Below, one piece after another: positions 5,521 through 48,751 of a stretch of DNA of 56,104 nt. The number at the start of each line of letters is the position of its first letter. The first letter of the stretch is position 1. The translations under genes were made by a program, and so were the position numbers. Origin of the DNA: Prorocentrum cordatum (taxonomy: Eukaryota); the NCBI GenBank assembly GCA_963575745.1, contig CAUYUJ010000112.1, positions 62,001-118,104 on the forward strand. The letters are read 5' to 3'. The notes under the pieces were generated by a model that worked only from the letters and a program-made list of their open reading frames with translations, was not told where the DNA came from and did not search any database.

Positions 5521-8027
5521 ATGATGCCGCGCCTGGCGCCGCGCGGCTGGGGGCGGCGGCGACGCTGCCTGCGGGCGCGCAGCTGCGCGGCGGCGGGGGG
5601 CCCGGGCGCCGAGCGGCGCCGGCCCATGCCAGCCGCGGAGCACCCGAGGGCGAGGGGGCAGCCGCCGAGGCACGGCCGCCGCCCACCCCCGCCGAGCTGG
5701 CGGCCAGGCGCGGGCCCGCGCCGGCGCCGGCTCGATGCCAGGCGAGGGCGGCAGAGCGCGCGCGCGCGCGCCGGGGCCCGCCTGGAGGAGCTGCCCGGGG
5801 CCTCGGCGCCGCCGCCAGCCTGCGGGCGCCACAGCCGCGCTGCAGCTCTGCTGCTGATCCTCGTGGCGACGCTTGAGACCGCAGACGCCGGGCCCATGCT
5901 TTGGCGGACGGCTCCCGACCACGAGACCGAGTACATGTACTACGACGACACGTCGGACGTGGACATGAAGGCGTTCTGGCTCGACGGCACCGTGGCCCCC
6001 TCCCCGCGCGAGGACGCGCTGCCGATCGGGGCGCGCCCCGCGAGCGAGCACATTGCTACCGCGGGAGGTGCCGGAGGGGGTCCGCCGCGCGAGCGCTTCG
6101 CGCCGCCGGCCGACCCACCTCCCCAGGGCCCGACCCGCACCCCCCCCCCGACCCCTCCGACTCGGACCCGTCGTCCTGGATCAGGGGTTGGGGTCTTTTC
6201 GGCAACAGTTGGAAAGACATCGGCAACCGCACGCGCCGGTTCGCCGAGGGGATGGGCGGGGGCACTTTCAGGGCTGTTGGGAGCTTCAGGTCTGCCTTTT
6301 CGACTCGTGAGGCAGGAGGTGGTTGGCTGAGCTCAGACGGCGGCTGGGTGCTGTACATGGCCGACCAAGTGGGCCTCTACCTGTTCGGCTCCGCGTGGCC
6401 GCTAGTCGTCGGGCTCGCGGCGATCCTCTCCGGCACTGGCGTGATCGCGCTCCTGGCCCACAGCCTGAGGACGCTTTGCCTCCGCGGCTTGGACATGCGG
6501 TCTGGTGCTGGCATGCTGCCCCTGCCCAAGGCGCAAGACGCCTGGCGAGGCCAAGCTTGACATGCTGGTCCCGCCGGCGGCCCCGCCCCTCACCGACGTG
6601 GTATGGCATGGCCCGCCAGTGGGCGCGGACCCGACCACCGATTGGCATCGCAAGAGCATCAAGGAGGGCAGGGGCTCCAAGCGTGGCCAGAACGACCTCC
6701 TGATCAGGGTCGACTACCGAGTCGCGCGGCTCAAGCTCAACATGAAGTCCCCGGAGCGCATCAACCGCCAAGGACTGTGGGTCGAGTGCGACTCCGTGAA
6801 GGGCGCGAGCGACAAGGGCTTCCGGCGCGAGCTCGAGCAGCGCGACCCGCGCTGGCTCCACCTGCGCCGCTCCGCCGGCTGCACTGGGTGCAAGGGGCGC
6901 GAGAACGAGCTGCACTGCAAGGAGTACGCCGCCCTCGACAACGAGGCTATCGTGGACCTCGGCGACTACTCGAAGTTCACTCCATGCCGGATCTTCGTCT
7001 GGCTCTGGCGGTGGTTGGGCTTGACCTACAAGCTGCTGCTGTGCGTCATCTCATGGCTTTCGTGCTACGGGGCGTGCATCTGCCGCCGGCGACGCCGCCG
7101 TCGCAAGACTGGCGATGCGGAGCCTGGTGTGCAGGGGTCTGTGGCGAGGCTGCTCGACCAGGAGTCCGAGTCCGAGGTGGACGTCGAGGACAACCTCTGC
7201 GAGGCGGTGAAGGTGGGGCTCATGATCAAAGGCAAGATGCGCCCACTGGCGCCTGGAGGCTGTCGCGATGCCGCCCGCGGTGAGCCGACCGTGCTGTTGG
7301 TGGAGGACGGCCGAGCTTCGGACCTCACGCCCCCCAGTGAGGGGAATGCGACGGCTTGCCTATGCGAGCACCACAAGCAGATCTACATGGTCCTACGCTA
7401 TGGCGAGAAGTGCTCTCAGGTAACGTGCTTCCGCGAAGCGGTGGGCATGGCCTCAGGGGTTCCACTCTGCCTGCAGCACCTCGGCGGCGACGCTGCCAAA
7501 GCGATCAACGACGCTCCCACAAGTGGCGGGTTCTTCGCAGGTTTGCGGCGTCGGACCCGGAGGAGCCCTGCCCCGCGGAGCCGCGCGCCAGAGCGTGCCG
7601 CTGCCGCTCCAGCCCGGAGCCGCACTCCAGAGCGCTCCACCCCGGCGGTCCCTGCCCCGGAGGCACCCACCAGCCCGGGCGATCCTGTCCCCGCGCCTGC
7701 GGGACCACCGAGCGTGCGGTTTGAGGCGCCGCCGGTCCCAGAGTTCCCCAAGCCGCCCACGCCGCCGCCCATGCCGCTCGGGCAGCATTTCATCGTTCGG
7801 GCGAAGGTGCAGTGGCCAGAACGGGCGCAGTGGATGATTTTCAGGGGAAGGGCAGCCGATGCCGCCGCAGCCAGCGCGGTCGCCGAGTACCTTGACGGCG
7901 CGATGGCCCTCGAGGTGGAGGATCCGACAGGCACCGTCATCCGTTTTCTGGTGAAGCCTGACGGCGTCATCCGTGCACCTGCTCCGGGGCCCTCGGGGCG
8001 CCTGCCCGCAGAGTTCACCGAGGAGAT
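5521..8027 (+). pseudogene. 5' part of the retroelement polyprotein (signal-like and TM segments, Cys-rich region, Pro-rich linker)
   Basis: Overlapping ORFs 5521-6330, 5901-6560 and 6505-8055 join through frameshifts; reading continues in frame at 23428 once the insertion is removed (EFTEE|MLHHAP). Confidence 0.75.
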
Positions 8028-13725: not shown

Positions 13726-13756
<31 letters not shown>

Positions 13757-14529: not shown

Positions 14530-15695
14530 ATTCGTAGCAACAGCTTGCTGGACAACTTGTGGACAACTTGCTTAAAGCTTGCTTGGTGTCGCAACATGTT
14601 GCTAGAATGCTGATTACATTTTGCTTCGCGTAGCAAAGTTCTGCTAAACACAATGCTTAAGTCTTGCTTCGCGTAGCAACATGTTGCTAGACATGCGCTT
14701 AACATTTGCTCGGCGCTGCCCTCTCCCGCCCCCCCCCCCCCCCCCCCCCCCCCCCCGCGCAAAAAAAATGCCGCCGCAATCGGCGCGAACGCGTGAGATG
14801 CTGAAAAATGTTGCTAGCAATGTGCTTAAAGTTTGCTTCGCGCTGCAAAATGCTGCTAGAAAGTTGCTTAAATGTTGCTTCGCGTAGCAAGAGTTTGCTA
14901 GACATGTGCTTGCATTTTGCTTGGCGCTGCCCCCCCCCCACTCCCCCGCGCAAGTAAAATGCTACCGCCATCGATGTGAACGGGTAAACTGTGGCAGGTT
15001 CGAGGCAACACGTTGCTAGACTGTTGTTCAAATTTTGTTTCGCGCGGCAAAATGTTGCTAGACATGTGCTGAAAGTTTGATTGGCGCGGCCCTCTCCCTC
15101 CCCCCGCGCAGATAACATGCCGCCGATGTCGATGTGAACGGTCAAGGATGCTGGAGGCGCGAAGCAAACTGCTGCTAGAAAATTGCTTAAATTTTGCTTC
15201 GCGTAGCAAAATGTTGCTAGACATTTGCTTAAATGTTGCTTCGCGTGGCAAAATGTTGCTGGACATGTGCTGAAATTTTGCTTCGCGTAGCAAGATTTTG
15301 CTAGAAAGTTGTTTAGAATTTGCTCGGCGCTGCCCCTAAGTAAATCAAGCCATTTTTGTGTCGCTACGCCCCTTTCACGACCTATGCGTTCGCATCGATG
15401 GCGGCAGTGGCCATGGAGGACCACGGCCGCCATCGATGCTTGGCGCAGCCGGCCGAAGCAAGATTTGCTTCGAATTTACCTTCGCGGGCCGCGCCAAGCA
15501 ACATTCAAACTAAGTTTTGCTTGTCAGGCAAAATTCAAGCAAAATTTTGCTTGCCAAGCAAAATTCAAGCAAAAATTTGCTTGCCAGGCAAAATTCAAGC
15601 AAAATTTTGCTTGCCAAGCTAAATTCAAGCAAAATTTTGCTTGCCGGGCAAAATTGAAGCAAATTTTCAAATTCTACTATCGGAAAGCATTTTTT

Positions 15696-15734
<39 letters not shown>

Positions 15735-15800
15735 GCCCCCCAAGTAAAATTCAAGCAGAATCCAAGCAAATTTCAAGCAAATTTAAACAAAATGTTGCTT
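14530..15800 (+). repeat. ~42-bp (ttgcttcgcgtagcaa...ttgctag) and 30-bp (aaaattcaagcaaaattttgcttgcc) tandem repeats plus a poly-A run
   Basis: Direct inspection; 30-bp units at about 15510-15670; A-run at about 15697-15732. Confidence 0.85.
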
Positions 15801-16665
15801 GAATCGCGCCGTCGTGCGCCGTCGTGCGCCGTCGCGCGGCGCGCTTCGTCGTAATCTGGCGGCGCTGACGGTCGGGGCGGCGCATGCGGCGCGGGCGCCC
15901 GACCAGCCCCCCCCCCTGCCAACCGCTGGCGGGATGCGCGCGCCAGGCGCGCGGCCCGGTGCTCGGGCGACGTAGGTGGACAGAACGCTCACCGCGACGC
16001 CCCTGCGATTCTCTCCGCTGCGACGCACCATGCTCGCTCGCATCTTCGATGGCAGAACGCCGCCCCCCTCCGGATCTTTGGCGAGCCGGCCCAGCGCCCC
16101 AGTCGCAGCGCAATGCTCGCCCAGCCGCGACGCGCTGCCCAGTGCCACCGAGCGGCCCATTGTCGCATCCTCGGGTGGAAGCCACTAGTTGGCGCATGGG
16201 CGGCGCGAGCCCCTTCGAAGACATGGGCAGCTGCGCCAGAAACGCGCCCAGACGCGGCGCCCCCGGTTGGGGCTGGCAAAGTGCCGCTTAACGCTGCGCG
16301 CCATCAGCGGCCCCGACAGACAGAGCCACCCCCTTTTCCCCCCCCCCCATGGGCAAGATGACTGCAGCGAGTGCCAGGCGACGCCGCCGCGGAATGCTCG
16401 GGCTCACGGGGCTCCCTGTTCTGCGAGCGAGCGCGCGATGCCCCGACTAGGGCCAGGGCGAGCGCGAAGAGGCCAAGGGTTGCCTTCCCAGAGGGTGGCC
16501 CAACACTAGAGATCGCCCGCGCACGGCCAGGATGGCAGAGGCGCGTGCTCGAGGGCACCCGTAGAATCGCAAAACGTGCCTGAGTGGAACTCAACTACCT
16601 GCACCTCACAATGAATATGGCCACCAATTTCCCCAAATTGGCAGGGCGCGCTATCTCGCGACCTA

Positions 16666-19600: not shown

Positions 19601-19700
19601 CCGGGCAAGGCGCCCTTGTGCCCCGTGGTTGTTGGGGACAACGTTACCGTCGGAAGAGTCTTGCGTCCTGTCGCGCGTCCTGCGCCATCAAGGCCGACTG
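16666..19700 (-). mobile_element. Non-autonomous Tc1/mariner-like element, copy 2 (inverted)
   Basis: TA|CAGTCGGCCTTGATG at 16664-16680 and CATCAAGGCCGACTG ending at 19700; reverse-complement homologue of 8513-11225. Confidence 0.7.
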
Positions 19701-22179
19701 CGTGACTCCCCATCCTTTGCCCCTGACTCTGCCTTGCTCTGCCCAGCTGATGTTCCCCCCCCCGCCAGCCCACGTTAGACGGGCGGGGAACGTCGTTTCT
19801 CTTTTTTGGGGGGGGGCGGAAAGGGGGGGGGATGGGGGGGGGGAAGGCGCGGGGCTGGAGTTTCACGCACCTTGGGCACGAGGTCAATCATGCGCAACTG
19901 TGAGCACCGCGATTGTGGATAAGCACATGCGCGTCTCACTGGGGCGTTCCGCGGGGCTCCCTGTGGGGCCGCGAACCGTGTAGGTGCGCAGTGATGCGTG
20001 TGTGTGTGGTGTGTGTGTGTGTGTTTGTTGTGGTGGTGTGTGTCGTGTTGGCGTGTTGGTCGTGGTGGTTGATGGTTGGTGGTGGTGGCGGTGGTGGCGC
20101 GTGGGGGGCGCGCATGGGGGCGGCGGTGGTCGCGGTGGGCGGGCGGGTTGGAGGTGGTTGGGGTCGAGCTGGGCGGGGGTCTCTAGGTGGGTGGGCGGGC
20201 CATGGGCGGCGCAAGCGCCATGGGCGTCGCACGCGCGCGCGCGCGCGCCGTCGTGGGCGGCCAAACGCAAGCACGCGTCGCTTGGAGCTCCCCATGGGCC
20301 CGCGAATGGCGCGGGCAGCGGTCGCCATTCGGGCCTTGCGCGGGGCTCTTCGCGCGGCCGCGGACCGCGCGAAGGGCGCGCCGCAATGGGCGGCGCGGGC
20401 GGTTGCAAGACGGCGCCGCCGCGGGGACCTCAGGCGAAACTCCCGACGCGGCCGCGGGCCGCGCGAGGCGCGCGCCGCAATGGATTGCGCGCGCGTGAAC
20501 CTTCGCCACTGGGGCCCTAAGTGGAACTCTTTCTGAGGCAACGGGCCGCGCGATGGAGCGCGTCGCCAAAGTTGGGCCGGGCACGCGCGCACGTCGCCAA
20601 AGAAACTTCTCGTTGAAATCCTTCTGGGGCCACGAACCGCGCGAGGGCGCGCCGCGACGGGTGGCCCAGGCGCGCGCGACCGTCGCCGCGGGGGCCTTCG
20701 GTGGAGTTCCATGCGGGGCCGCGAACCGCGCGATGGGGCGCGCCGTGGTGGGTGGCGCGGTCGCGTGTCCACGTCGCCACAGGCGCCTCAGGTGGAGCCC
20801 CCTATTGGGCCGCGGTCCGCGCGAGGGCGCGGCGTCATGCGTGGCGCGGACGCATATGAGCGTCGCTACTGAGGCCTTAGGTGCACTGCCATACGCGGCC
20901 ACGAACCGCGGGGAAGGCGCGCCGGGACTTTCGCGTTGGCGTCGCAAGTGCGCGCGGCGCGCCGACGTGGCGCATGGACATTCGCGCGCGGACGCCACGC
21001 GCGGGCGCTGCCGCGCACGGGCGCTGCGCAAAGAGGCGGGGGGGGGGGCGCGAACAGGGGGGGGTCGCGATGGAGTGGGGTGGGCTGGGATGGAGGGTGG
21101 GCGGGCGGCGGGCGGGCGGGTGGGCGCGCGCGCGGAGGGGGCGGGGGGGGGGGGCGGGGGGGGGCGATGGGGGGGGGTAAACTGCGTAATGCAGGCGCGC
21201 CGCGAAGTACGCGTCGGATGAATGCATTAAAGCATATGACGGCCCACATCAACATAGCAATGACGACTTTAAACCAGTTGCGAAAAAAGAGGATCCGCGC
21301 TGGCTGTGCGTTGGACAGCCTAACGAGGTACATTGCAAGGGCGCACAAGACTGGTAAATAGCTCCAGAAACCCGTGTAGAGCAAAGCATGATGGGGGGAG
21401 CGGGCATTGGACTGATCGGGTAGGGAATGTGCACGTGGTCTGCACATGCGGATTGGGCGTGGCACTGCGCTGTGCTACCGCGGTGACATTTGCGTCGTGG
21501 ACGCCGCCATGGCGACAGCGTGCGTTACTTTATGTACGCGTCGAACCCTGAGGAGACGCCCGCGTCGAACTCGGTCGCGCCACCCTCTGCACCACCGTTG
21601 CATGTGGACAGCGTCTGGTTGGCGTTTGAACATGCCAGGGTGGCGTGGGATAAGCTTTGGGGTAGGTTTGCGGACCACGCTAATGCTACGAATCGTACGC
21701 CACAGGATAGTCGCAGAGATACTGTTGACCTTGGTCACAGTATGTGTTGGAGCAGGGTTCGATAAAGGCGTGGTCAGGCACGGTCGCGCAGAGTTGAATA
21801 TGCATGCGTTGAATATGAATCTAAACGATGCCAGCGCAGTGTCTAGATAGGGCTGCATGTAATAGAACATAGAGCTTTCAACGTGGCTGCAGGGCAGGGG
21901 CCCGTTGAGTGCGACATGGGCGGTGGTAGCGTAGCGTGGCAAACTCACAAACACAAATTGCGTTAATAGCTTTTCTGGCAAACTGCGCGCTGGGGGGCGG
22001 CGGAGCAGTGACCGACAAAGAGACGGAGCGCACTTACTGAGACGTTGCTAACCCTATAGCACGCGGCCGACCAGCGTGGAAAACAATGTAAAGAACGAAA
22101 CGGTACGACATGCATGACATTATCAGGTGACGAACTAGATGTGGCCTCCTGGATGACGCGCACCACGGCGAAAGCCCCC

Positions 22180-22530
22180 TGAGGAAAACCAGTTGTGCAT
22201 TTTTGATTTGGGGCGCCAGCTTGAGCCGAGGAAGCCTCAGGAAGGCAGCGGGTGGCACGTGTCACCGCGAAATCCGCTTGCGGAAACCAATTGCGCGCGT
22301 TTGATTGCGGGCGCCAGCATGAGCCAAATGAGCTTCAGAAGGGCAGCTGGCGACACGTGTCACCGCGGAAACCGCTTAAAGAAAACGCATTGACAGGGTT
22401 TGATTCTGGACGCCAACATGAGCCAAGTAAGCCTCACAAGAGCAGCGGGCGAGACGTGTCACCGCGCAAACCGTTTGAGGACAACCAATTGAACACGTTT
22501 GATTCTGGACGCCAGCACGGGCCACACCAC
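22180..22530 (+). repeat. ~98-bp tandem repeat x~3.5
   Basis: gtgtcaccgcg at about 22259, 22357 and 22456. Confidence 0.85.
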
Positions 22531-23427
22531 GCGGAAGAGACGCGGTTGACAAGCTCCCGCGGAGGAGCACGGGGTGGGAAGGGGGGGGGGGGGGGGCAAG
22601 GGGGAACGGGGGATGTGAAGACATGTCTTTGCCAGGTCGCAACTGGCAAAATATCGGGGAGAAAGCGCCGATCGAAAGATCGGCAAGGATGCCCAAGAAG
22701 GCCGCGCAACGCCATCGCGCGGCAAGAAAAGCGCGAGGACCCGCCCGCCCAACCGATAACATGGGCAAGGATGCCGAGGGATCCCCAAGGGTACCCTTGC
22801 TTCCCCCATCCTTGCGACGCCGCCGCGCAATGGGCTTCAACCCCCGACGGCAAGGGCGAACGTTCCACCAAGGGTACATTTGGGCGGCCGAGACCGCAGC
22901 CAGGCACGCCTGGGAAGGATGACGGCTTGACGTGGGCGCGTTAACCCCGCTAGTGGGGGAACTTTCCTGATGGCACCAGCTTTGAATGCACGATTGGCGA
23001 TCGCGTCTGTCGCGGTCGCGTTTCAATTTGTTTGTGGGCGGGCACCGCCACTTGCAAGTCAGAACCTGCGGCGCAGATTCGTGACATTGAGGTCCGGTGG
23101 GATTTGCCAAGTCCTGAACCGTTTTTAACAAGTCTTGTCCTGCCCCACGACCCACGTCCCAGTGGTGGCGACGCACGCGGCCTGTAGCTGGGGAGCGTGG
23201 CGAGGGCCGACAACGCGAGACAAAACCCGATCCCGAACTGACTACGCATGCTTGGCGTGTGTATCATTATCGCAATGTTGCTTGGGTCGAACATTGGAAT
23301 GCCCCTGCGCCCGTCCGATCAGGCTACTCCCCTATGGCGCGCGCACATTCAAGATTTCTAGTAAAATTTTACTTGGCGGTTCAATTCTTGGGTAAATCAA
23401 TTTCGTAGTGATGCAGCGGTATAAGAG

Positions 23428-26010
23428 ATGCTCCACCACGCGCCTTTGGGTTGCGAGGAGCTCGGCATCAGCGTCCTGGCGACCAACATGCCAGAGAAAG
23501 TCTGGCGCAAGTTGGCTGCGTGGCACGGGCTCCCCGTGGGCGGCCGCGCCGGGCCACTCAGCGAGGCCCGCTGGCAGCTGCTCCGCGAGAAGGTGGCCAG
23601 CTTAGTCTGGTGGCACCCTGAAGGGGGAGTGGCACCCAGCCCGAGCTTCGAGGCGAGAGCTACCGAGGCAGACGCCAGATTGCGCAGCCACTGGCAACGG
23701 CTGGACCGTAGCAGCTCGCCCAAGCCGCCAGCTGGTTCTGCCCGGCGAGGTTCGCGCTCCCCGTCAGCCGAGGGCGGGCGCGCAGCTAGTTCCGAGGCAC
23801 CCGCATCGGGAGAGAGCCATCAGGAGGATGACGGCGGGGATATGATGGCATGCTACTTGGAGGAGAAGGCCCGGGGATCGAGCGACGCAGCGGCGGTGCA
23901 GAGTGCGGCCGCCGGCTTCGGCGAGGAGGCCCACCAGGTGCTCGCCGACCTCATCCGCTACGCCCAGCACCTCAGGCAGCAGACGACCGAGCCTGAGGAG
24001 CTCGCACGGCTCGATGGGCACATTGGCAGCTGGGAGGCGCTGCAGCAGGTGCCTTCACGGCCTCAGACCCCGGAGGCAGCGCCGAGCAGCCTGCAGGGTC
24101 TGCTCAAGCTCCCGCCCGAGCGCCACCGCTCGCAAGGGCCGCTGGCCACCCAGGCCGATAGCGCGCCCTTGATCGAGACGCGGCCGCCCCGCTCGCCAGC
24201 AGCGCCTGCACCGGCACTTGCACTTGGGCTGCGGGACACCGGCCCCCTGCCGGCCGCGGCTGGGCTCGCCCCCGTCGTTCGCCCACAGGCTCCAAACGTT
24301 GGGGCCCTATTCCGCTACGACCATCACATCAGCGACTTGGGTTTGCCCCCAGGTCTGACTACAGCTCCGGCGCGCTATGCCGCGGGAGCCCCAGAGGAAG
24401 GCGGAGGAAGCGACCCGTTTGGCCTCGTGCAGCCCGGAGCACCCTTGGATGCGAACACCGCACGGATGTTGCACGCCCTGGAGGGGGTCGCTAGCGCCCG
24501 CCAAGGCGACAAGGCGGCCCAGCGCGGGACAGTGGCGGCATTGGGAAGAGCGGAGGAGTTGGACGTCTACTTGGCGCGCGGGTGCGGCCAGCTGACGGTG
24601 GAGGTCTGCGACGAGGTCCTTGGGCGCGAGCTGTTCTATGCTCTGCGCCGGACCTGCGAGCAGAACAAGGCCCTGATGCTCGCGGTCGAAGCGCCCACGA
24701 CGGTGTCCAATCGGATCGCGATGGCCTGCGCCTCGCTCAGCTTCGGCGGCAGCAGCCTGGACAACCTGGCTCCGTGGTCTGCCTCAGCGGCGGACTTCCC
24801 GACATGCCAGACGGTCGCGTTCGACAAGTACAGCGCGCCGCACGACGCCAAGCTGGAGCCCAGGCCCAGGGCGCCAGTGGTCTTTGACCAGTGGAAGCGA
24901 CAGGCCTAGAACATGACCAAGTTCTTCGGGCTCGTCTTCGGACGGGAGCACGTCAAAGAGCGTCTGGACTGCCTGGAGATCCTTGCGCGGGAGTGCGAGA
25001 AGGACGACCACGCCTTCCCGCCCAAGTTCGTATATGAACTATGGGAGGAGCTGTGGTCGACCTGGTGCGAGCGCCTCCGAGAGAAGAAGCGAGGCCTCCT
25101 GCGCGTGCTGCAGACGGACAACCCCCGGAAGGAGGACCTCAAGATGGTGGCCTTCGCTCCCAAGGCGGATGGCCGCCCGGCGTTCGTCTTCCCCAACGTC
25201 TTTGACCTAGAGTCCCCCACGGGCTACTACCAAGAGGTCGTGCGCCCTCGCCAGCAGCGCTACCTGCAGACCGTCCTCAACGACTCGATGCACGGGGTGC
25301 GCGGCGTCCCGGGCAAGGCAGGAGAAGTCGGAGAAAGGGGGCGAACCGGCTGCTGAGCTGCAAGATCAGCGAGCAGGAGCAGCGCCCAAGAGGAAGCCCA
25401 CCGGCCGAAAGCCACCTCAGCGCGCGCCGCCTACCCCGCTGGCAAGCGGCTGAACGCACAGGAGATCAAGCTCTCCGTCCGGCACGCGCCCTGCGACAAG
25501 CAGGGCAAGCCGCTTTGCTGGGACAACTCGACCTGGATCGGCTGCAAGAAGGGCGCTCATGGGTGCTCGCATTCACACGAGCTCATCAAGGGCCTGAAGG
25601 ATGTGCACTGGACCGTGCAGTGCCAGCTGCTCAGGCGAGGCGGGCCCCGCAACGCCGCCAAGATCGACCCAGCTTCGGTCAATGGGAGGATCGCGCAGCT
25701 GCGGGCCCAAGCCAAGACAGAAGCGGACAGCAAGCGGGCAGCAGGCGCGGGGGCGACGGAGAACCAGCCGACCAAGACGGGCTGGGCACCACCCGACGAG
25801 TACGCCGAGGTTCAGTGCACCGAGCTGGAGTCCGAGCTCCGCGAGGCTGCCCAGGGACCCGACGCCACCTGGCTGGAGGACCCGCGCGCTGACAGCCCCG
25901 CCCTGACTGGGGCGAGCGTCTGCACAGACGCGGGGGCCTTGGCCCAGCAGAAGCTGCTCGTTGCTGTCCAGGAGAGCGGAGTGCTCGACCCCTGTGAGCC
26001 ACGCCAGTGA
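23428..26010 (+). pseudogene. Gag-like region of the retroelement polyprotein with CCCH zinc finger
   Basis: One frame throughout with stops at 24907 and 25354; C-x8-C-x6-C-x3-H (CWDNSTWIGCKKGAHGCSHSH) at 25516-25578. Confidence 0.7.
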
Positions 26011-26149
26011 CTACCTACGGTCACATGTCTTGGCCCGCCTTGCCTGTGCCCGTGGGCGCGGGGAAAAGCTCTCAGTCGAGCAGGTACTCCTTGAGGCAAC
26101 GCGCCACGGGGGCCCCACCTTGGCTGCCGAGGCTAGCGAGCTCCTGGAC

Positions 26150-26900
26150 CGCATCGGGGCGAAAGCCGGCAACCTGGGGGCCGACCCAGACGTCATCATC
26201 ACCCCAGTGCGGTGGAACGCGGAGAAGTCGGTGGGCCAGGGTTCCGTCACCGTGCAGGGCCAGACTTGGCATTACCTTGACTACCAGGACCAGCTGCCCC
26301 TCGACGAGTGCATCGCGAAGCGTCTGCATGTGCCCACCGGAGTTTCGGAAGAACGCCAACGTCTCCCACTCCATCTGGCGGCAGCCAAGCTTTGGGTGCA
26401 GCTCGAGGCACCACCTGACGCCCAGCAGGTCAAGGACTTGGCCCTCGAGATCCGCAGGGACCTCTTGGAGAAGGCGACCGGCGCTGCTGCGGGCCTCGCT
26501 GACGCCCCACCCTGGATATCTCCCAGGGAGGCCGAGGTCCGGATGCACATCCACGACGCGGTGCACCGCGACCACGACAAGGATTTCAGGTGTGTCGCCC
26601 TTTTCCCGTGCGAGGCGCTGGACGAAGTGGTGGTCAGAGTCTGGCGGGCAGATCACTGGGGTCATTTGGATATTGACACAGTCCTTCCAGCGGGGGAACC
26701 CAAGCAGGAGTGCCACGTGATCACCCATCGCGGGCACATGCGTGTCCTTCACCCTCCGTCCGGCGCCGAGGGCCGACGGGTGGCCGACGAGCTGATTCGC
26801 ACCTGGGCCACGAGCGGGAAGGACCTCAAGGAGCTCCCCACCATGGGCTGGGAGACATACCTCGCTTCCGAGGAGGAGGGCAGCCCGGTGGTGTCCAGCA
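26150..26900 (+). pseudogene. Putative papain/OTU-like cysteine protease domain (Cys codon mutated)
   Basis: EERQ[R]LPLHLAAA (CGT at 26360, one transition from TGT) and HVITHRGHMRVL (His at 26735); inference only. Confidence 0.3.
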
Positions 26901-27059
26901 AACCCCCACCGTGCCAACACTGCAGGGCACGTGCAGCACAGCAGCAGCAGCGTGGGAGAGCCGCCGGCGGCGCACCCGCCGTGGTCGAGCTCCCCACCGA
27001 GGTGGCCTGCCCAGACTTTAAGGACCTGGCGCCTTTGCGCTCTCGGCCCGCCTTCGCAT

Positions 27060-28215
27060 GGGGGCTCAGGACGCGGGAGATCTTCGCCGGCACAGGGCGC
27101 TGGACACAGGCCATGAAGAACGCGGGCATCGCCACCAGCGATCCGTCGAGTACTACGGGCAGCCAGGACCCCAGGCCGCAGTTCGACATCCGCGACCCGC
27201 TAGTGCGCGAGCGCCTGTACCAGGAGTTCAGTGCGCCTCCAGGCCCGGACGAAGCCAATGTGCTACAGTTCGCTCCTCCCTGCGTGAGCCACTGCCCCTG
27301 GCAGTTGGCAGCAGGAGGGGCGAGCACCTTCGAGTGCCCAGATGGGACTGGTGAGCGTCAAGTCGAGATCGATGGCAACGTGTTCGGGGAGTTCGCGTGC
27401 ATAGGGGCAAAGCGGGGCTACGAGGCAGGACGAGAGTTTCTCATCGAGTCCTCAGCACGGGGCGGCAGGTACCCCAAGCTTTGGGATCGACCCTGCATGA
27501 GAGCTCTAGTGCACGCGACTGGGGCCCGGGTCCTCGCCATGGACATGTGCGAGTGGGGACTCGGACCCCCGGACGAGCCCCAGTATCGGTACCAGAAGCG
27601 AACCTGGTGGCTGGTATCACTCGGGCTCTACCCTTACGCTCTGATCTTGGCCAGGCGGTGCTCGGGCAAGCACGCGCACCGCACGTTAGAGGGCGGCCTG
27701 CCGCACGACTTGACGGACGCCCAGGTGTAAGCCTACAACCTCGACGCACGCACGCGGCTCAGCAAGGCCGAGGCAAGCGAGCTGATCAACCTCAGCACCA
27801 AGTTGGGTGAGGCCAGCGGGTGCTATGGCCTCGACAAGGACGGCGTCACAGTCAGGCTGTCCCCGGACGACAAGCTGCTCCGCGTGAACCAGCTCATCGC
27901 GCGGGCCGCCCCAGACAACTTCCACTGGGCGCGGGTGGACTTCCGCACCAAGCGGCACTACTCCGCTCTGTCCGAGAACCAGTGGGCCCTCTACTTCGGA
28001 AAGACCCCCGAGGGCGAGCTCCGCTTCACCATCAGCACGCAAGCCCCGCCCAACATGGAGGGTGGAGGGCGCGTCCCCAGCGGCACCCCCCAGCTCAGTG
28101 CTGCAGTGAAGGGGGAGCTGGGAAGCGCCGGCTTCGGGCTGGGGCTGCGGGGCATGCGGAGGACCCAGCACGCGGGGCAGTATGCGCCGCGGCTGTGCGC
28201 TGCCTGGGCAGTCGT
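27060..28215 (+). pseudogene. C5 cytosine DNA methyltransferase domain 1
   Basis: Motif I EIFAGTG (27077), IV FAPPC (27269-27283), VI LIE, VIII-like DMCEWG..YQKRTW, X-like RTQHAGQYAPRLCAAWA; in-frame TAA at 27728. Confidence 0.85.
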
Positions 28216-29005
28216 GCTGAAAGCAGCGGCTGCAGGCACCGCTCCCGAGCAGCTGGAACAGCAGATTGCGGCGATGGACGCCGAGGCGCGGGCTTTGGAG
28301 GAGAAGTTGGAAAGCAAGGTGGCGCGGGCCGAGCGTTTTGACGCCCTGGAACAAGACCCCCCTCCTTCATCGCGCCCGTCAGCCTGTGCGGCAGAGGGCG
28401 CCGCGACCGAGGGCGGGACCATCAGCGAGCATGGCGAGAAGAGCGGCAGCTTGAGGAGGAGCGCCATCACTGGTAAAGCAGAGGAGGATCGGAACAGGTG
28501 CAGTTGCAGCTACGACGACAGCTGGCTTGAGGCCCCCCTCAGCTGCTGCGGCGTCTCGGACTGCCTACCCCACCCGAAACTGAGAGGCTCAACGGAGGTC
28601 AGGGTTGACGAGAGCTCAAAGGGCCCCCGTGGGGGCGGTCGTTCAAAGGACGGCTGCCCGGAGAGAGACGTGGCGGAGGAGGACGGCGGGAGCTTACAGG
28701 GCGAACGCCAAGGTGAGGACGAGGTGGAGGTGGAGACCGGCGGTGAGCCGATCGTGATCGAGTGCGGTGGCGACGAAAAGCGGGGCGGCAAGCGGGGCGG
28801 CAAGCGAGGGGGCTGGAAGCGCAATAAAGCGCGCAAGCGTGAGGCGCGTGAAGCTGCCGCTCGAGGTGGAGGCGGACCTGGCGGAGATGGTGATGGTGAC
28901 GACGACGGGGGTGAGAGCCCCGACAAGGATGAGGAGGAGGAAGAGGAGAACCGCCGCCAGAAGAAGGCGAGGGAAGCCGAGAATGAAGCATCCCGAGCCA
29001 GCCCA

Positions 29006-29250
29006 GTGCGAGTCTTTGTCCCGCAGCAGGGCGACCAGTGGGTGCTGCTCAAGGGGGCCGTTCGAGGCAGGAGAGGTCAAAGCGAAGCTGAGGGTCTCAG
29101 ATGCGCTGTCCGGGTGCATCTTCGACGAGGACCAGCTGTACCTCTTCGAGTACACGGAGGACGAGGACACGGCAGGCGCACATGGGCCACCTCTCGACGA
29201 CGAGGAGTCGGTGCGCCCTGGAGAGAAGCTGCTGCTGTGGGCCACGCTGA
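29006..29250 (+). pseudogene. Putative ubiquitin-like domain
   Basis: After removing one G from the G-run near 29053-29057: VRVFVP..WVLL..VKAKLRVSDALSG..EDQLYLF..PLDDEESVRPGEKLLLW, which follows the beta-grasp pattern. Confidence 0.4.
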
Positions 29251-30899
29251 AGCCGCCGAAGGATTGGACCAGCTGGAGCCCCCGGTGGGATCGAGATCAG
29301 CAACCAGCACCTGGCGCCACAGCCCAAGCCGGCCAGCGGAGGGTCACAGCCAGGGTTGCTGACCGGGCTTCAGCCGCAGCGGCAGCTGCACGATCAGGCG
29401 GGGCCGCAGCAAGCTCAGCAGCCAGCAGCAGCCGCATGCCAGCACCGACGTTCAGCGAAGTGGCCGCAGCAGTAGGAGGCGAAAGGGCAAGCTCAGTCCC
29501 CCCGTCCAGCGGGGGCACTTCGAGGAGCTCAGGCGCCCTGAGACGAGTGGAGGAGCAGCTCGCCAAGGCCCAGGGGCGCCACGCCCGCCTAGCGGGCGAG
29601 GGCAGCGACCAGGAGCGGAGCGCCGCACGTGCAGTCGGGCAGCTGGAGGTCAGGCGCAACGAGGTACAGGCCCGCCGCGCCGCCCGACTCGAGCGCGAGG
29701 CGCGCCGGAAGGAGCGCGAGGACCAGAGGGCCATGAGTGCCCCCCCGAGGCCTCAGAGTCCGCAGGAGTTCCCAGGAGCCCCCCCTCCACCGGAGGCTGA
29801 GGGGGACCAAAGAGGCCACCTCCGATGAGGCAGGACGCAGGGCCACCGAGACGCACCCGGGGGTAGCCTGCCGCGGGGGGGTCCACAAGTGCAATGCAGC
29901 ACGGCGCTTCGTCAAGAACTTCAATGACGTACGGAGGGGCGGCAAGAGCAACGACCTCCAGCACGCGGATATCTTGTACCTGAACGGGATCGGGCAGAAC
30001 AGCGACGTGTTGATGCAAGAGTAGCCTGGGGCGGATCCGACGGATCCGACCCTGGCGCCAGAACCTCGCCAGCTCGGCGAGATCCTGGCGCGCTACGTGG
30101 AGGAGCACGAAGCGCTGAAGGTCAAGATGAAAAGCCTCGGCATCCCGCGGGACGAGCACGCCGGAGGAGGGATCCTGGGCCCCATATACGTCGAGACCGA
30201 GAAGACCTACATCGAGGAATACGAGGGCCAGGGCATTCCTAGCGCCCGCAGCCGCAGCCGCAGTCGGGGTGCGGGGACGGCCCCCCACGAGAGAGAGCGA
30301 GGTCCTCCGGAGGGGTGCACGATGGCTCAGAGTCGTCCGCCTCCGAGACGATGGCCCCCATTGCAAGAGGCAGACTGCGAGCGAGGTCGCCGCCGGACGA
30401 GAGCCGCGGGCGCAGTGCCGCCCCTGACCCAAGGGACCCAGGGCGTAGATGCGGAGGCCCCGAGGTGCCGCCGGCGCATGTCCGCCCGGGCGCGCACCAT
30501 GAGAGCAGAGCGGAGGCACGCCAGAGCGAGCGTCCAACAGCGCCGCCGGCTGCCTCTCGCCCTGGAGCCCCTGAGGCTAAGGAATACCTGGCTTGGTGCC
30601 TGGAGCGCGCAGGGTTCGCCCCGGAGCTGGTGAAGGAGGTGACGGACTTGGGGAATCGTCTGCTCCTCGCCGCGGGGAGCGTGGAAGCCGCCGCGGCGCG
30701 GCTTCACGAGGAGCGGGAGCGCGTCCTCGGGAATCCGCTCGGAGGGGTGCTCGACCCTGAGTTCGGCGCGGCCCTGGAAGAGGACCACAAGCAGTACCTC
30801 CGCGAGATGGCCACCAAGGGTGTCCCCGTCCGGAGGCAGCGGCCCAGGCGGCGCACCGTGGCCAAGCCCCACGCCTCAGCACGGGACCACGCCCTGGAG

Positions 30900-31720
30900 A
30901 TGTACGCCAAGGCCTGGAAGGACACCTCCTACGGCGCCGTGCTTTGGGCCACCCCAGAGGCCGAGGACGCTCTGTCTGCATCGGAGCTCATCGAGAGCCC
31001 GTCCGGGCGAGTACCCAAGATGCTGCCCGACCGCGCGGTGAGCAGCGAAGGGCGCCCTATACACGACATGCGCGCCGCCAACGGGGACTCGCCCAAGGAG
31101 CTGCGCCCGCCGGCTCTTCAACCGAAGCACGAGGCCCTCGTGCGCCTCTCCCTTTGGTGGTCAGCGCGCCACCCCGGGGTGCCGCAGGTGATAGCCAAGA
31201 GGGACGTCTCGAGGGCCTTCAAGTGGCACTGGGTGCGCGACGAGGACGTAGCCGAGTTGAGTTCGGCACCTCCCTCCCAGGCGAGGCTGTGGACATGGCC
31301 ACGCGCGTGATCATGATCCACTGCGTAATGGTCTTCGGGTGGTCGGGGTCCCCGGGCGAGTATACGGCGTTCGCCTGGAGCGCCAAGTGGGACCACGAGC
31401 GGCGCAGGCCGCCGGACCCCGCAGTCAACGACACGGTGCGCTGGTCGTCCAAGTGGTTGATGGACGACGGCGTCCTGGTCGAGCCGCTGGTCGGCCTCAG
31501 GCCCTGGCTCAGCGCAGCCGACTGCGACGCGAGCATGAGGCGTGTCTGGGGCAGCGAGGCGATCAACGTTGACAAGATGGCGGAGGAGGGTACCTTCCAG
31601 GCAGAGCAGTTGGTCTGGGGCCTCTATCTGGACGTTGACAAGCAGCGCTCGAGGCTCCCGGAGCCCAAATGCGTGAAGGCCGCCCACCTCCTGGCGATCA
31701 ACGAGCTGCACTATGGGTGC
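30900..31720 (+). pseudogene. Reverse transcriptase domain (DIRS type)
   Basis: SGRVPK..GRPIHDMR, KRDVSRAFK, MVFGWSGSPG, WLMDD, LVWGLYLD; frameshifted by a GAGTT duplication at 31254-31263. Confidence 0.93.
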
Positions 31721-32029
31721 CGCCGGGTTCCCATCAAGGTCGCCCAGGAGCTGAGGGGCTCCGCGCAGTTCTGGGTGGCCACGCAGCCGGCTATCAAGCC
31801 TGAGCTGCCGGTCATCGACCGCCTCCTTGGTGGCGGGCTCGGAGCAGCCTGGGCGGAGCCCAAAGGGAGCGCGGAGGAGGTTGCCCTCGCCTGGGACGAG
31901 TGGGATCAGACCCTCGAGCTGTTGCGAGTGCTCTTCGACGCGCCCGAAGCCTGGGCGCCCACCTTCGAAGCAAGCTTCATCTCCTGCTTGGGGCCGCGCG
32001 AGCGCCTAGCATTACCAGGTGCCACCGCC

Positions 32030-32460
32030 CGGGCGAGGTGGACGGGGGGAGATGCTACCACGACGACCATCGGCAGCATAGACTGGGGGCGCGCAGTGGC
32101 AGGCAGCAAGGCGGCGCCACCACACTATATGGCCGTGGATGCCGCCCCGCTCCTCCGCCAGCTGGAGGACGTGCTGAGCCACCCGGGGGCCGAGAAGGAC
32201 TGGGCTATAGCTATCGTCGAGCTGCTCGCATTCGTGGCCTTGGCCGCAGCGAGGGGCGACGAGTGGCAGGGCGAGCTTGTCTTCTACGTCACTGACAACA
32301 TGAACGTGCGGTCGTGGATTTCCAAGAGGCGTCCCAAGCATCCGCTTGCGAGGCACCTCGCCCGCCTCATTCAGCGCTTGGAAGCCTGCCACGGGTTCAG
32401 CACCACCGCACTGTACATCCGCACCTACCACAACGACATCGCGGACTGGCTGTCGCGAGA
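32030..32460 (+). CDS. RNase H domain of the retroelement polyprotein
   Basis: GGDAT, IVELLA, VTDNMNV and HNDIADWLSR give the D-E-D-D residues. Confidence 0.92.
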
Positions 32461-32649
32461 GGAGGCCAAGAAGGTCCACTCCGAGCTCCTGCGCAAGGGG
32501 TGGACCCGTATCGAACCGCCCGAGGCGTGGGGGAAGATGCTGGCGGAGGCGAAGGAGCATCTCTTGCGGCTGCCTGGGGAGGAAGGGCCCATTGCGGAGT
32601 CTGCGCTCCGACATCGGGCGCTGAGGACCCCCGCAGCGGTACCGCGCAA

Positions 32650-33490
32650 CCTGGCCCTCAAGGGGTGCCGAGGGCTGGAGCTCGGGAGCCCGCTGGGCAC
32701 CTACGGGCGCGCCTGGGAACGGCTAGGTGGGGAGCTGACGACGAGCAACTCAACGGAGGTGGACTGGATCATGTGTACCTTGACCCTGGACCCGAAGGGT
32801 TTCGAGGTCGAGAAGCTGGTGTCCGCGGTCACCCGAGCAAGGCCGCAGATCGTCGTGGTCGATGCCCCCGGCAAGCTCGACCTGGCCCGCGTCGTCAAAG
32901 CGCCGCGCAGGATGGGATATCGCACGTACGACCTGGAGGTCGTCTGCACCCACTACGGCGACATGACGGCCCGGGCTCGAAGCCTGCTCGTAGCGGGCCG
33001 AGGACCAGCAGGCGCTAGCCTGGCGAGCGTGCGCACGCCGCCGGCGCGCCGCTGTCCACACGGGGTGAAGCACGCGCTGAAGGACAAGCTCAGCGAAGGC
33101 GGCCACCACTGGCTCGACGACGAGGGGAACGTCACGTGGGACCCAGCAGCCCGGAGCGGCTCCGACGCCATGCTGCCCAAGGGAATCGGCCACATCAAGC
33201 TCGCCGACACGAAGCACCTGGTCTGCTCGATCGACGGCCCGACCGGCACGGTTCGCTGGCCCACAGAGGGCCCGGGCGGACCGGGAGGGACGTTGGCCCA
33301 CATCCCGGGGAGCTGCGACGGGCGCATCCGAGCGCTGTCGCCCGAGGAAATCTGGATCGTGCAAGGGGGCGACGAGGCGGCTTGGGTGGCGAGGCGGGCC
33401 CAGGGCGACGCCGTGGATGCCCAGATGCGGGAAGCTGCGAGGTCCTTGCCGCCAGAGACGGCGAGAGCTGTCCTGGGCGCCGTCGCGGAC
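32650..33490 (+). CDS. Second, catalytically degenerate C5-MTase-like domain
   Basis: RPQIVVVDAP (VI-like), MGYRTYDLEVVCTHYGDMTARARSLLVAGR (VIII-like), IRALSPEEIWIVQG (IX-like), QMREAARSLPP (X-like); no PC dyad. Confidence 0.65.
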
Positions 33491-33949
33491 GCGACGTTGC
33501 AGACCACCCAGCGGGCAGGCGGCTGCCGCGACCCCGCGGAGTCCGCCGCCTGGGAGACGACCCGGAGGTGGCTCAGGGCTTGGGCGCAGGGCGAGCTCCG
33601 CGTGAAGGCCGAGGCCGCAGGGGACGACCGACACGCGGGAGTGCTAAGCGACGATGTTCACAAAGCGAGGCGCAAGAGCCAAGGCGTCCGCTTCAGAGCG
33701 ATCGAGGAGGACCTCGTGCGGGGGCCCGAGCCCCCACCTGACGCCAAGGAGGTGGACCTGAATGCGGTTGTCGACACGCCCAAGAGGCGACGGAGGCGGA
33801 GCCCCAACAGGGGCAAGAAGGTGGAGACCCAGAGGCTAGTCAAGCCGATCGCGCTGGGCCAAGCTCGGGCTGCCATCGCCTGGCCGGACCGCCCGACCCT
33901 GGGAGGGGAGGACTACGGCAGGTGGATCGAGGAGCAGAAGCGCGAGGCG

Positions 33950-34172
33950 CTGATGCTGCGGCTGTCTGAGGGGACCCGCGCCGGCTATGAGACCGGCTGG
34001 CGACAGTGGCAGGGCTTCAGGTCAGCCCAGGGCGAGTCGCCCTGGCTCGAGGGGCGCGACCGCGAGGAGCGCTACGCCAACGAGGAAGCGTTGCTGGGAT
34101 TCGTCGTTGTGTTGGCCAAGGTGCTGAAGCGCACAGAGGGTACGATCAAACAGAAGTTGTTTGTTGTGCGTT
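33950..34172 (+). pseudogene. Tyrosine recombinase N-terminal (core-binding) part
   Basis: LSEGTRAGYETGWRQW..GTIKQKLFVVR rejoins FAHLVVGYPDP at 47133 after removing the insertion. Confidence 0.88.
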
Positions 34173-34604
34173 CCCAGAGCATCCGAACAGAATAAAAAGA
34201 AGGAGCTGATCGTTAGAAAGAAGAAAACGAAAAAAAAGAAGAGTAGATGTACGACGTGTCAATATGTCATAAAAAAAGAAGTTTATCATATAATAAGAAT
34301 AACAAGAAATAAATGAAATAATTCATTTTGAAATGAATTAATTCATTTCCAAATGAATAATTCAGAACATGCATGTTATACTATGTACACAATATTAGAG
34401 CTATTGCATGTCAAGTGTATATGTTGTCAATGTGTGCGAGTGTGTATATATGGTGCGTGCGCCTAGATGATATATAGGTTTGGGCGGATTGAGGTATTAT
34501 GGGGAACTCACATAGCCTGGTGGATCCACTGGATTCGGCGGATATATAAGGGGTGGGGGGGGATGCGCTGTTGCACCCGAGCCACGCAGGCCCAAGCATT
34601 ACAT

Positions 34605-44339: not shown

Positions 44340-44385
<46 letters not shown>

Positions 44386-45798: not shown

Positions 45799-47132
45799 TT
45801 TCAAGTTTCGCTCTGGCCCAGCTTAGCTTTTAAAGCCATGGGGAAATGGCTTAACACTCGTGAGCTGGATTGCAAATCCGTTCGCACTCCTCATCCTCAC
45901 ATTCTCAAGCTCCTCTCATTCTCATTGTCGTTTGAATGCACGCGTATACGTGTGCAGAAATGTTGTGATGTTGCCGAAACCTCTGTCGCATTGGTGGTGC
46001 CAAATCGTTATTGTCACAGCTTATCCTCCGCCGTCCGTTTCACCGCCCATCCCTCCTTCCCTTTCGCTCGCCTCACCTCTTTCCCTCTCCTCTCTCCCTC
46101 CCTCCCTCCCTCTCCTTCCCTCTCCCTCCCTCTCCCTCTCCCACTCCCTCTCCCTCTTCCACCCGCAATCCGTACCATCGATTTCCAAAGTCGAATGGCG
46201 AAGTTCCCCCCTCCCCAGCTCGGATCGGCAGCTGAGTTGCATCGCAAACGCTTCGCGACGACCTCCCCACGCCTGCCTTACAAAGGCTTGCGCCGTCACC
46301 GCCGAAAAACCACAAAAATAACAAATCAGATGGTAAGTTCCGAACTCGCGACCCTGGTCGATTTTCCGATAGCCGCGGCCCAACGGCCTACGACTGGAAT
46401 TCGGAATAGGAGGGGGGATCAGGAGGAGGTGGAGGAGGAGGAGGAGGAGGAGGAGGAGGAGGAGGAGAGGGAGGGGGAGGATGAAGAGACGGAGGAGGAG
46501 GATGAGGAAACGGAGGAGGAGGATGAGCTCGGAGGAGGAGCGGGAGGAGGAGGAAGAGGAGGAGATGGAGCAACAGGAGGAGCAGCAGGAGGAGGAGGAG
46601 CAGCAGCAGCAGGAGAAGGAGGAGAGGAGGAGGAGGGAGGAGGAGGAGGAGGAGGAGGAGGAGGAAGAAGAGGAGGAGCAGAGGAAGAGGGGGAGAGGAG
46701 GAGGAGGAGGAGGAGGAGGAGGAGGAGGAGGAGGAGGAGGAGGGGGAGGAGGAGGAGGAGGAACAGGAAAAGGAGGCGGAGTATCAGAGGTTTTTGGTGA
46801 ACGCAACTGGCGCGCATATGCCACTAAGCCTCGGCTAACGCCTGGCAACTGGGCCATGGGCCTACAACGGACGGCGCGCGTCCTCATGAGCGCACGCAGA
46901 AACGTAAAACAAAACAATACAAAAAGAACGCACTTGCATAAAATAAGGAGATCTGCAATAATCATATGCATTTACGAAGAGAAACCATAAAAAAAGAAGA
47001 TATTCCAAAGAAAAGAAGATAACTCAAAAAAAAGAAGATCAGCGAAATAACAAGAAGGCGATTCATAAAAAAAGGAGATTCGCAGAAATGAAGAAGATAT
47101 CTTTGATTTATTCTGATAGGATGGTGTGGGTT

Positions 47133-48751
47133 TTGCCCACCTCGTAGTCGGCTACCCTGACCCTCTACTCCACCGCGGCCGCCTCTGGTCCACGCTCGCC
47201 GGCCTCAAGAGGGGCCAAGGGCCGAGCGGGCGGAAGCGGCCTGTGACACCGCGCATGCTCTTGTGGCTCCACGGCTTCCTGAAAAACCAGACCGACCTCC
47301 CCGCGACGGATGCCGCGGTCCTGTGGGCCGCCGTGGTTGTGGCTTTCTTCTTCATGTTGAGGGCGTCCGAGTACTTGATCCAGCCTGGAAAAACGTGGAG
47401 CCAGGAGCGCGTCGTGCGCGGCGTGGACATCACGGGCCGCGACAGCAACAACCAGCCCTGCGCCTTCAGAGACGCAGTGGAGGTGGTGCTCCACATCACC
47501 TCTTCGAAGACGGATCAATATAATGTGGGGTGTGTGAGGAACCAGTACGAGACGGGCACATCGCTGTGCCCGGTGGCCGCTATCCGCCAGCTGGAGCAGC
47601 GCTACCCGCAGAGGCTGCGAGGCAGCGAGGAGGAGCTCCCACTCTTCCGCTGGGCGAACGGTGCACCCATCCGCCGCGAGGAGGTGCAGCACTACTTGAC
47701 AGTGGCAGGGCTGGCCGCCGGGCTGAGGAAGGAGGAGATCGGCTCACGCAGCCCCCACATAGGAGGCGCAACGGCGATGTGCCATGCCGTGGACGACCTG
47801 CAGCGCGTCAAGCGCTTCGGGCGCTGGGCCTCCGACAGCTTCCATGGGTACCTGTGGGGGGGCCACGAACCCATGCGCGGCATCTCGACCGACATGGCGA
47901 CAGACACGTCCGAGCTCACGGCGCCGCCGGCCCACGCGGCCGAGAGCGAGCGCCGCGCGGGCAAGGGCCCGACCCCGCTATGGCCCGGAGCTGTGCTGGC
48001 CGCGACGACGCTCTCCTCCACAGCTGGCGGGGCGGACGGCTACGTGATCAAGGTCGACCCGGCGGAGAGCCAGAACCTACTGATCTTCGTGCTCCCGGTC
48101 AGCTTGAGGACGTGGGCAGTGGCAGCGGGGATGCTGCTAGCGGCGGTGCTGCTGGGAGCTGTTTGGCAGCACAGGCGGCAGCGAAGGAGTGGGCGGGCAG
48201 CCAGCGGGCGCAGCAGCAACCGCAGGGCCCGCAACCCCCGGGCGAGCCTGCCGTGCGCAGCGCTAATGGCAACGGCGCTCGCAACGGCAGCGGGGGAGAC
48301 ACAGGGCCAGGAGATGGCGGCGGTCGACGACAAGACCCAGGGGGTGATACTTCGCTGGGAGCCGCAGATGAGCACGGTGGCGATCGTCTTCCCGGTGGAG
48401 ACGGCGCTGAAGGTGGCGGCCATGATCGCAGTGCTGTTCGCAGCGGGCATCGGGGTGCTTTGCTGCTGCTGCTGCGGGATGGCCAAGAGAAGCGGGAAGG
48501 TGCCGGAGCACGAAACACAGCGGGCCGTAGTGCAGCCGACGCCCAAGGCGCCCAAGCTCCCCAAGCAGCCGCAGAAGACGTACTGCGACGCGGGAGTGAT
48601 GGGCCAGGTGCATTACAACGGCGTGAGGTACGCGCACGAGACCCAGGGCTTCCGCCGGGCCAATGAGGTGACACGGGAAGTGGCCCCGCCAGGGCACCGC
48701 GGGCCGCCAGAATGGTCCCGGGGAGGAGAACCGAGGCCGCATCGTGACTGA
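47133..48751 (+). pseudogene. Tyrosine recombinase catalytic domain plus transmembrane C-terminal tail
   Basis: FMLRASEY (R), SSKTDQ (K), RSPHIGGAT (decayed HSLRIGGAT, 47747-47758), GRWASDSFHGY (W, Y). Confidence 0.92.

Follow-up and report, generated by a model that had tools for sequence, protein, structure and literature searches.

The proteases of tymoviruses and arteriviruses are dual enzymes, acting both as proteases and as deubiquitinases. OTU enzymes, whose cysteine lies in the motif D-G-N-C, bind the C-terminal tail of ubiquitin (...RLRGG). How the long proteins of tyrosine-recombinase retroelements are matured is, to our knowledge, an open point. In the part of PMC3783388 available to us, such elements are described as being without a protease, which was also the premise on which a preliminary description of the DNA studied here had based itself for the DIRS order. 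OTU domains are already known from Ginger1 and Helitron transposons and from viral polyproteins, and we found no prior report of one in DIRS-like elements: the words 'protease' and 'OTU' are absent from the main text of PMC5890265 and from a 2026 preprint on retrotransposon methyltransferases, and a literature search, with subscription journals and Repbase reports lying outside it, brought up no account of these elements with a protease or an OTU domain. Here we analyze a stretch of 56,104 nucleotides of Prorocentrum cordatum DNA (contig CAUYUJ010000112.1, positions 62,001 to 118,104 of the forward strand), henceforth the window, with positions counted from its first letter. In the reading we consider probable, the region 26150-26900 encodes, in an inactivated copy, a highly divergent OTU-fold protease of DIRS-like retroelements, and the intact form of this enzyme would cut its own polyprotein after glycine residues.

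Translation of 26150-26899 is free of stops. Its residue 71 is Arg (CGT, 26360-26362), within EERQRLPLHLAAA (longer context ...VSEERQRLPLHLAAAKLW), and its residue 196 is His (CAC, 26735-26737), within ITHRGHMRVLHP (RGHMRVL). The two codons are exactly 125 codons apart, in agreement with the spacing of about 125 codons proposed in the preliminary description, which had also remarked that CGT is one T>C change away from a cysteine codon. The homologues bear this remark out. Where the window has E-E-R-Q-R-L-P-L-H, all homologues that span the site in a first alignment have E-x-R-Q-C-[LF]-x-L-H. The closest homologue, P0091 (50% identity), has ESRQCLVLH. We then counted residues after aligning a domain profile to all stored proteins, which gave 125 rows besides the two of the window, each count being taken over the rows that span the column concerned. 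The column of the window's Arg holds Cys in 98/99 rows, with a gap in P0039, and the window's residue is the sole one other than Cys. The Gln directly before the Cys is kept in 96/99 rows and the Glu at -4 in 97/99, and upstream Asp/Glu residues are also conserved (D98 in 95/99). The His of G-H-M is present in all 88 rows spanning it. Comparable conservation is seen in a segment H-D-x5-H-D-K-D-Y-R, in the HD pair of which His is kept in 97/100 and Asp in 100/100 rows, followed by the second His (99/101), its Asp (100/101) and the Arg (101/101).

Related DNA gives the same answer at the nucleotide level. Logan contigs at least 80% alike, drawn from four public runs (X1-X4) and compared over 25900-27700, read T at 26360, and hence TGT for Cys, in X1 (4 contigs, depth 171.6/171.6), X2 (2 contigs, 5.5/8.37), X3 (2 contigs, 13.4/13.4) and X4 (1 contig, 4.05/4.05). 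Since the related contigs read TGT, the Arg is private to the window copy or rare. The metagenome loci discussed below were selected with patterns that included the Cys motif (from a 13-sequence alignment) and are not counted as evidence for the Cys. Judged from these alignments, the Cys/His pattern is far above chance once the homologues are included.

The preliminary description had suspected a papain- or OTU-like fold, and structure prediction points the same way. The intact homologue P0008 was modelled with AlphaFold2 from a 70-sequence alignment. This model has a mean predicted local distance difference test (pLDDT) score of 85.7, and in it Cys126 opens a helix (126-140) and His253 opens a strand (253-258). 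In the model of the window's own 250 residues (pLDDT 94.9, predicted template modelling score 0.91), helix 71-85 begins with Arg71 and strand 196-201 with His196. Among the Foldseek matches listed against the PDB, OTU enzymes occupy all but one row for one model and all rows for the other, with nairovirus vOTUs, otubains, OTUD1, DUBA, Cezanne and a Wolbachia OTU represented. VIA-align, which is independent of Foldseek, was run with each model against 48,161 chains, and further cysteine deubiquitinases or proteases of viruses occupy its rows 33-36, PLP2 of porcine reproductive and respiratory syndrome virus among them. A viral structure library gave three matches at E<=1e-3, a viral polyprotein and a giant-virus protein among them, and the next matches were nairovirus L and giant-virus entries named 'OTU-like cysteine protease'. 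The models thus give good support to an OTU fold, of the papain-like clan, as the predicted fold, and intact copies very probably encode an OTU-fold Cys/His hydrolase. The HD....HDKDYR segment comprises a helix end and a loop in both models, and its position might suit either the variable loop of an OTU active site or the source of an acidic partner. A reading of HD....HDKD as an HD-type phosphohydrolase was set aside in view of the OTU fold of the two models.

The domain belongs to a large family. A word-index search yielded 20 homologues, and a profile search of 1.84 billion representatives yielded 3990 at E<=1e-3, 272 of them at E<=1e-30. Two cluster members are labelled 'unnamed protein product, partial [Polarella glacialis]', and because the source-named cluster members come from this species we regard the family as dinoflagellate. 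A further word-index search for proteins closely related to this domain of the window (137-438 residues) found none. Pfam recognizes no family at E<=0.1 in any window frame of the element, a PDB sequence search with the profile gave chance rows only, and an ESM Atlas search was uninformative (best score 0.81). PF26692, which is not in the Pfam copy scanned, is precomputed on three homologues and appears to be located in the gag-like N-terminal part, outside the protease-like domain.

Long relatives show in which protein the domain resides. Metagenome locus L002 contains, at 92-5857, an uninterrupted frame of 1921 residues (P0203) in which LLRRGG is followed by a linker, a helix bundle, the OTU-like domain (RQC 314, CHM 443), a methyltransferase-like domain (PCT 628, ENPL 677), reverse transcriptase (RT; LMDD 1138) and RNase H, with recombinase homology lying downstream of the RNase H. 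Because L002 holds all of these in one frame, the protease-like domain appears to be made within a very long protein alongside the replication enzymes. In P0150 (2430 residues) the protease-like domain occupies 96-330, and residues 2343-2414 match Phage_integrase weakly (E 1.9e-5; 25 bits, with the Pfam cut-off at 27.1). The frame of locus L005 has a Phage_integrase match that is likewise below the cut-off (E 4.2e-4). The window's segment 47126-47899 is homologous to the recombinase regions of P0150 and L005, itself having no Pfam match. Pfam also detects neither RT nor RNase H in the window's pol frame, which has an LMDDG motif and is homologous to long dinoflagellate polyproteins; the available part of PMC5890265 describes the same for the RT and RNase H of Symbiodinium DIRS elements. 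Judged by sequence, dinoflagellate DIRS-like (tyrosine-recombinase) retroelements probably carry the protease-like domain as a regular component of their long gag-pol-like protein.

We rejected a programmed frameshift between gag and protease, as the frame changes differ in place and direction among L002, L003/L005, L004 and the window, and L001 has none. Loci L003 (10222-10291) and L005 (10252-10300), which are about 46% and 70% identical to P0008, share the position of a -1 frame change, which lies ahead of the protease core. We take this shared change as decay because other loci shift frame elsewhere or nowhere.

The candidate cleavage sites are K/R-small-Gly strings. All eight strings listed in the preliminary description are present: KTG 7105, KAG 25315, KTG 25774, KAG 26162, RAAG 26957 and RRAG 47951, together with RAGG 33512 and RHAG 33629, which read QRAGG and DRHAG in the pol frame. 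Its expectation that such sites are conserved within otherwise variable linkers holds in part. Counted in a full-length homologue profile (see the table), it holds for KAG 25315, KTG 25774 and KAG 26162 and close to RAAG 26957, with KAG 25315 and KTG 25774 among the conserved sites that lie within variable linkers. It also holds for RAGG 33512, which is aligned with DKAGG in P0077 and KKAG in P0150, the two homologues covering it, and is matched by DKAG in L002. It fails for KTG 7105, kept in 3/14 homologues, for RHAG 33629, aligned only with SRKAG of P0150 (one of two homologues), and for RRAG 47951, which lies past the end of the homologous region. The list did not include LLRRGG, which follows the Cys/His knuckle at 25516-25644 and resembles, by analogy, the tail of ubiquitin.

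In the P0008 model, KVG 61-63, RLG 311-313 and KIG 331-333 are in low-confidence linkers flanking the protease. KVG 61-63, the counterpart of the window's KAG 26162, falls in a pLDDT dip (blocks 73 and 64), and the counterpart of the C-terminal extension with RAAG has pLDDT <50. The long protein P0203 has 10 [KR][AVIT]G strings where 4.8 +/- 2.1 would be expected (P 0.02), and all but one of them lie between recognizable domains (118, 251, 502, 524, 778, 796, 1558, 1849 and 1881). Six of nine proteins tested (P0203, P0150, P0024, P0009, P0015 and P0020) are enriched in [KR][AVIT]G at P<0.05. In a control for conserved islands covering 200 class-x-residue patterns, four of 15 conserved triplets in poorly conserved flanks are [KR]xG and every other pattern contributes at most one.

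These observations suggest the following route for an intact element. The long protein would be translated as a single chain. Within it, the role of nucleophile would fall to the invariant Cys of E-x-R-Q-C, located at a helix N-terminus, and that of general base to the invariant His of G-H-M, which opens a beta-strand about 125 residues after the Cys. The enzyme would cut after the Gly of [K/R]-[A/V/T/I]-Gly and of LLRRGG, in flexible linkers between domains, and so release a gag-like/zinc-knuckle part, the helix bundle, the protease, the methyltransferase-like domain, RT-RNase H and the recombinase. It would thereby substitute for the aspartic protease in its job in long terminal repeat (LTR) elements. 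The Lys/Arg at P3 may be held by conserved acidic residues of the domain. Removal of ubiquitin-like modifiers may come in addition, as in related viral OTU proteases, and such a second activity on ubiquitin-like conjugates is plausible because a basic P3 and a Gly at P1 resemble the end of ubiquitin. Polyprotein processing by the OTU-fold domain is moderately supported; we infer the catalysis, the cleavage sites, the order of cuts and their cis or trans mode. A broader version is possible but doubtful: an OTU-fold enzyme recruited by dinoflagellate DIRS-like elements would mature the whole polyprotein from gag to recombinase at [K/R]-x-Gly and, via LLRRGG, also act on ubiquitin-like conjugates, as the retroelement counterpart of the dual enzymes of tymoviruses and arteriviruses.

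Several observations weigh against polyprotein processing by an OTU-fold protease. No PDB match in Foldseek reached E<=1e-3, the lowest E values being 3.4e-3 and 3.5e-3, and Pfam, OTU included, gave no peptidase-family match at E<=1 in the 70 members scanned. The acidic residue usual two places after the OTU His is missing, the family having H-M-R with Arg at that place in 64/87 rows. Across the frames of the element in the window, [KR][AGSTV]G occurs 16 times per 3632 residues against 16.3 +/- 3.8 in 2000 shuffles and is thus not in excess, and the caveat of the preliminary description that R, A and G are common in GC-rich open reading frames is correct for the window alone. Among the homologues, the enrichment of [KR][AVIT]G is only about twofold and not significant in three of the nine proteins tested (P 0.06-0.23), and it comes from related proteins, so that the tests are not independent. 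The thresholds of the island control were set after the data had been seen.

Part of this evidence fits other explanations. The domain might be an OTU deubiquitinase, or a remover of ubiquitin-like modifiers, that counters ubiquitin-dependent restriction by the host or serves chromatin or DNA-repair steps and processes no polyprotein, the K/R-x-G strings having another purpose or none. The top structural neighbours are all deubiquitinases, the K/R-x-G enrichment is modest in homologues and nil in the window, and, in the part of PMC2836005 available, the OTU domains of Ginger1 and Helitron are not known as polyprotein processors and reside in single proteins that need no processing; we nevertheless rate this explanation as rather unlikely. 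The domain might instead have an OTU-like shape without hydrolase function, as a structural or nucleic-acid/metal-binding gag module in which HD....HDKDYR and the Cys and His bind metal. An unusual cluster of invariant His and Asp residues, the lack of a sequence match to OTU models and the missing canonical acidic residue after the His would suit such a module. However, in the models the invariant Cys opens a helix and the invariant His a strand, exactly the places of the nucleophile and the base in OTU enzymes, the Cys follows an amide residue (Gln) in 96/99 rows, and residues of this kind are usually lost in pseudo-enzymes, all of which makes a non-catalytic module improbable. That the R...GHM pattern and the Gly sites arose by chance in a GC-rich open frame agrees with the composition-like count of K/R-small-Gly strings in the window, but this explanation is already refuted, its remaining probability being negligible, because the motifs are kept in about 100 homologues of 25-50% identity and the fold is predicted at high confidence. 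The protease reading of the preliminary description is thus supported, with Cys at the expected position in homologues, a predicted fold in the papain-like clan and several conserved Gly sites in the linkers.

At the locus itself (table), the sequence is GC-rich (55-70%) with numerous overlapping open frames. In tblastn searches with long homologues, four blocks, 6288-7527, 24424-27700, 30453-34186 and 47126-47899, are homologous to a single long dinoflagellate protein, with about 17 kb and about 13 kb of other DNA between pieces of the element. Because these coding pieces match one long protein, all eight K/R-small-Gly sites can be assigned to a single element, as had been supposed. Besides the Cys->Arg replacement, the window copy has two stops in frame and one or more frameshifts, and it is interrupted twice over long distances. 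The stops break the gag-like frame within 23425-26010, and beside the frame change (25983-26012) three related contigs (from X1 and X3) have one letter fewer at 25993. On this sequence evidence, the window copy is an inactive relic.

Features of the element in the window and of the full-length homologue profile; the last column gives the profile site and the rows in which [KR]xG (or LLRRGG) is kept.
Feature	Positions	Strand	Basis	Profile site and conservation
N-terminal conserved part; Cys-rich and basic stretch; holds KTG 7105	6288..7527	+	tblastn of P0077, P0023, P0024	
Gag-like part, frame 1; in-frame stops TAG 24907-24909 and TGA 25354-25356; KAG 25315-25323	24424..25356	+		337, GG[KR]AG (KAG 25315): 36/74 (49%)
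Cys/His knuckle (CWDN...C...C.H.H) ending in LLRRGG (25627-25644)	25516..25644	+		438, LLRRGG: 70/75 (93%)
KTG, candidate cleavage site in variable linker	25774..25782	+	homologue alignment	500, [KR]VG ([KR][VA]G): 35/80 (44%)
Shift from frame 1 to frame 2 in window copy	25983..26012	+	tblastn frames	
Three-helix bundle ahead of protease core	25997..26161	+	domain hidden Markov model (P0001 residues 31-330); helices 4-56 in P0008 model	
KAG, candidate cleavage site at border of helix bundle and OTU core	26162..26170	+	homologue alignment	633, [KR][AV]G: 74/98 (76%)
Predicted OTU-fold cysteine protease core, inactive in window copy	26186..26761	+		
CGT, Arg at position of candidate catalytic Cys; opens helix 71-85	26360..26362	+	homologue rows, related contigs, model	
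HD....HDKD[YF]R motif, helix end and loop, near-invariant	26552..26590	+	homologue alignment	
CAC, His of GHM, candidate catalytic His; opens strand 196-201	26735..26737	+	homologue rows, model	
C-terminal extension: GWE..L, CxxC 26912-26923, then RAAG 26957-26968	26843..26968	+	homologue alignment	884, after CxxC, adjoining RAAG 26957: 49/55 (89%)
QKIGG, no equivalent in window				905, QKIGG: 24/43
Rossmann-like, methyltransferase-like domain (FAGTGR ... PPC)	27083..27700	+	no Pfam match	
Pol part: RT (LMDDG), RNase H, further domain, N-terminal part of recombinase; RAGG 33512, RHAG 33629	30453..34186	+		
Tyrosine-recombinase part, beyond about 13 kb of CT-rich DNA	47126..47899	+	tblastn of P0150 residues 2169-2427 and P0077 residues 3072-3269	

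The interruptions and flanks have features of their own. The first interruption (7528-24423) carries long inverted repeats, 8767-11236 against 16655-19289, which are 77-85% complementary and therefore suggest a nested insertion with inverted ends. The second (34187-47125) consists of CT/CCT-rich, low-complexity DNA. A 108-nucleotide tandem satellite lies on either side of the whole element (4709-5338 and 49804-55100), perhaps a sign of insertion into a satellite array. About 2.7 kb (27731-30450) rich in Gly/Arg/Glu repeats (GGKRGG, poly-E) separates the methyltransferase-like domain from the RT homology, the equivalent spacer in L002 being only about 170 residues long. The module at 6288-7527, in which Pfam finds no match, comprises a stretch resembling GRG..R..DLL...ARLRHGT, a hydrophobic run rich in Cys with poly-Arg after it, an acidic stretch resembling SETESE, and an end rich in Cys and His. 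Related elements encode, in or after pol, an RNA 2'-phosphotransferase (Tpt1/KptA, PF01885; L005 12527-16558, L002 5853-7859, P0026 and P0039; E down to 2e-24), an unusual accessory enzyme for a retroelement, which Pfam did not detect in the window copy.

A conserved Cys/His domain together with Gly sites between domains would offer a concrete and testable answer to the question of maturation for a very large dinoflagellate family, and would add a retroelement to the mobile elements and viruses that carry OTU enzymes. Present annotation pipelines miss this domain family, no scanned member having a Pfam domain there. Compared with the OTU deubiquitinases (PF02338; OTUD3 4bou, TRABID 3zrh, Cezanne 5lru, A20 3dkb and yeast Otu1 3by4), the domain is predicted to have the same fold by two independent structure aligners, with the Cys at a helix N-terminus after a loop, the His on a strand near the end of the core, and an amide directly before the Cys, Gln here and Asn in the OTU motif. 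It differs from them in giving no sequence match, in its E-x-R-Q-C motif, in having M-R after the His where OTU enzymes have x-D/N, and in its additions: the HD....HDKDYR segment, an N-terminal beta-hairpin and three-helix bundle, a C-terminal CxxC extension and its embedding in a polyprotein. The viral OTU-like polyprotein proteases and deubiquitinases (turnip yellow mosaic virus 4a5u, marafivirus 7mia, arterivirus PLP2 8ehn and nairovirus vOTU 3phu) come from RNA viruses, whereas this domain, in which we found no sequence similarity to them, belongs to a reverse-transcribing tyrosine-recombinase element of a protist. With the aspartic protease of LTR elements and retroviruses it would share the proposed cutting of gag-pol, the fold and chemistry being unrelated. 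Ginger1 and Helitron DNA transposons likewise carry a cysteine protease of the OTU kind on a mobile element, and according to the available part of PMC2836005 theirs is recognized by Pfam and sits at the end of the transposase, in contrast to a domain unrecognizable by sequence and lying between gag-like part and pol. SymbioDIRS-Dnmt3, as far as described in the available part of PMC5890265, is likewise a DIRS-like element of dinoflagellates (Symbiodiniaceae); its RT is divergent and escapes Pfam, and it has RNase H, tyrosine recombinase and methyltransferase-like domains.
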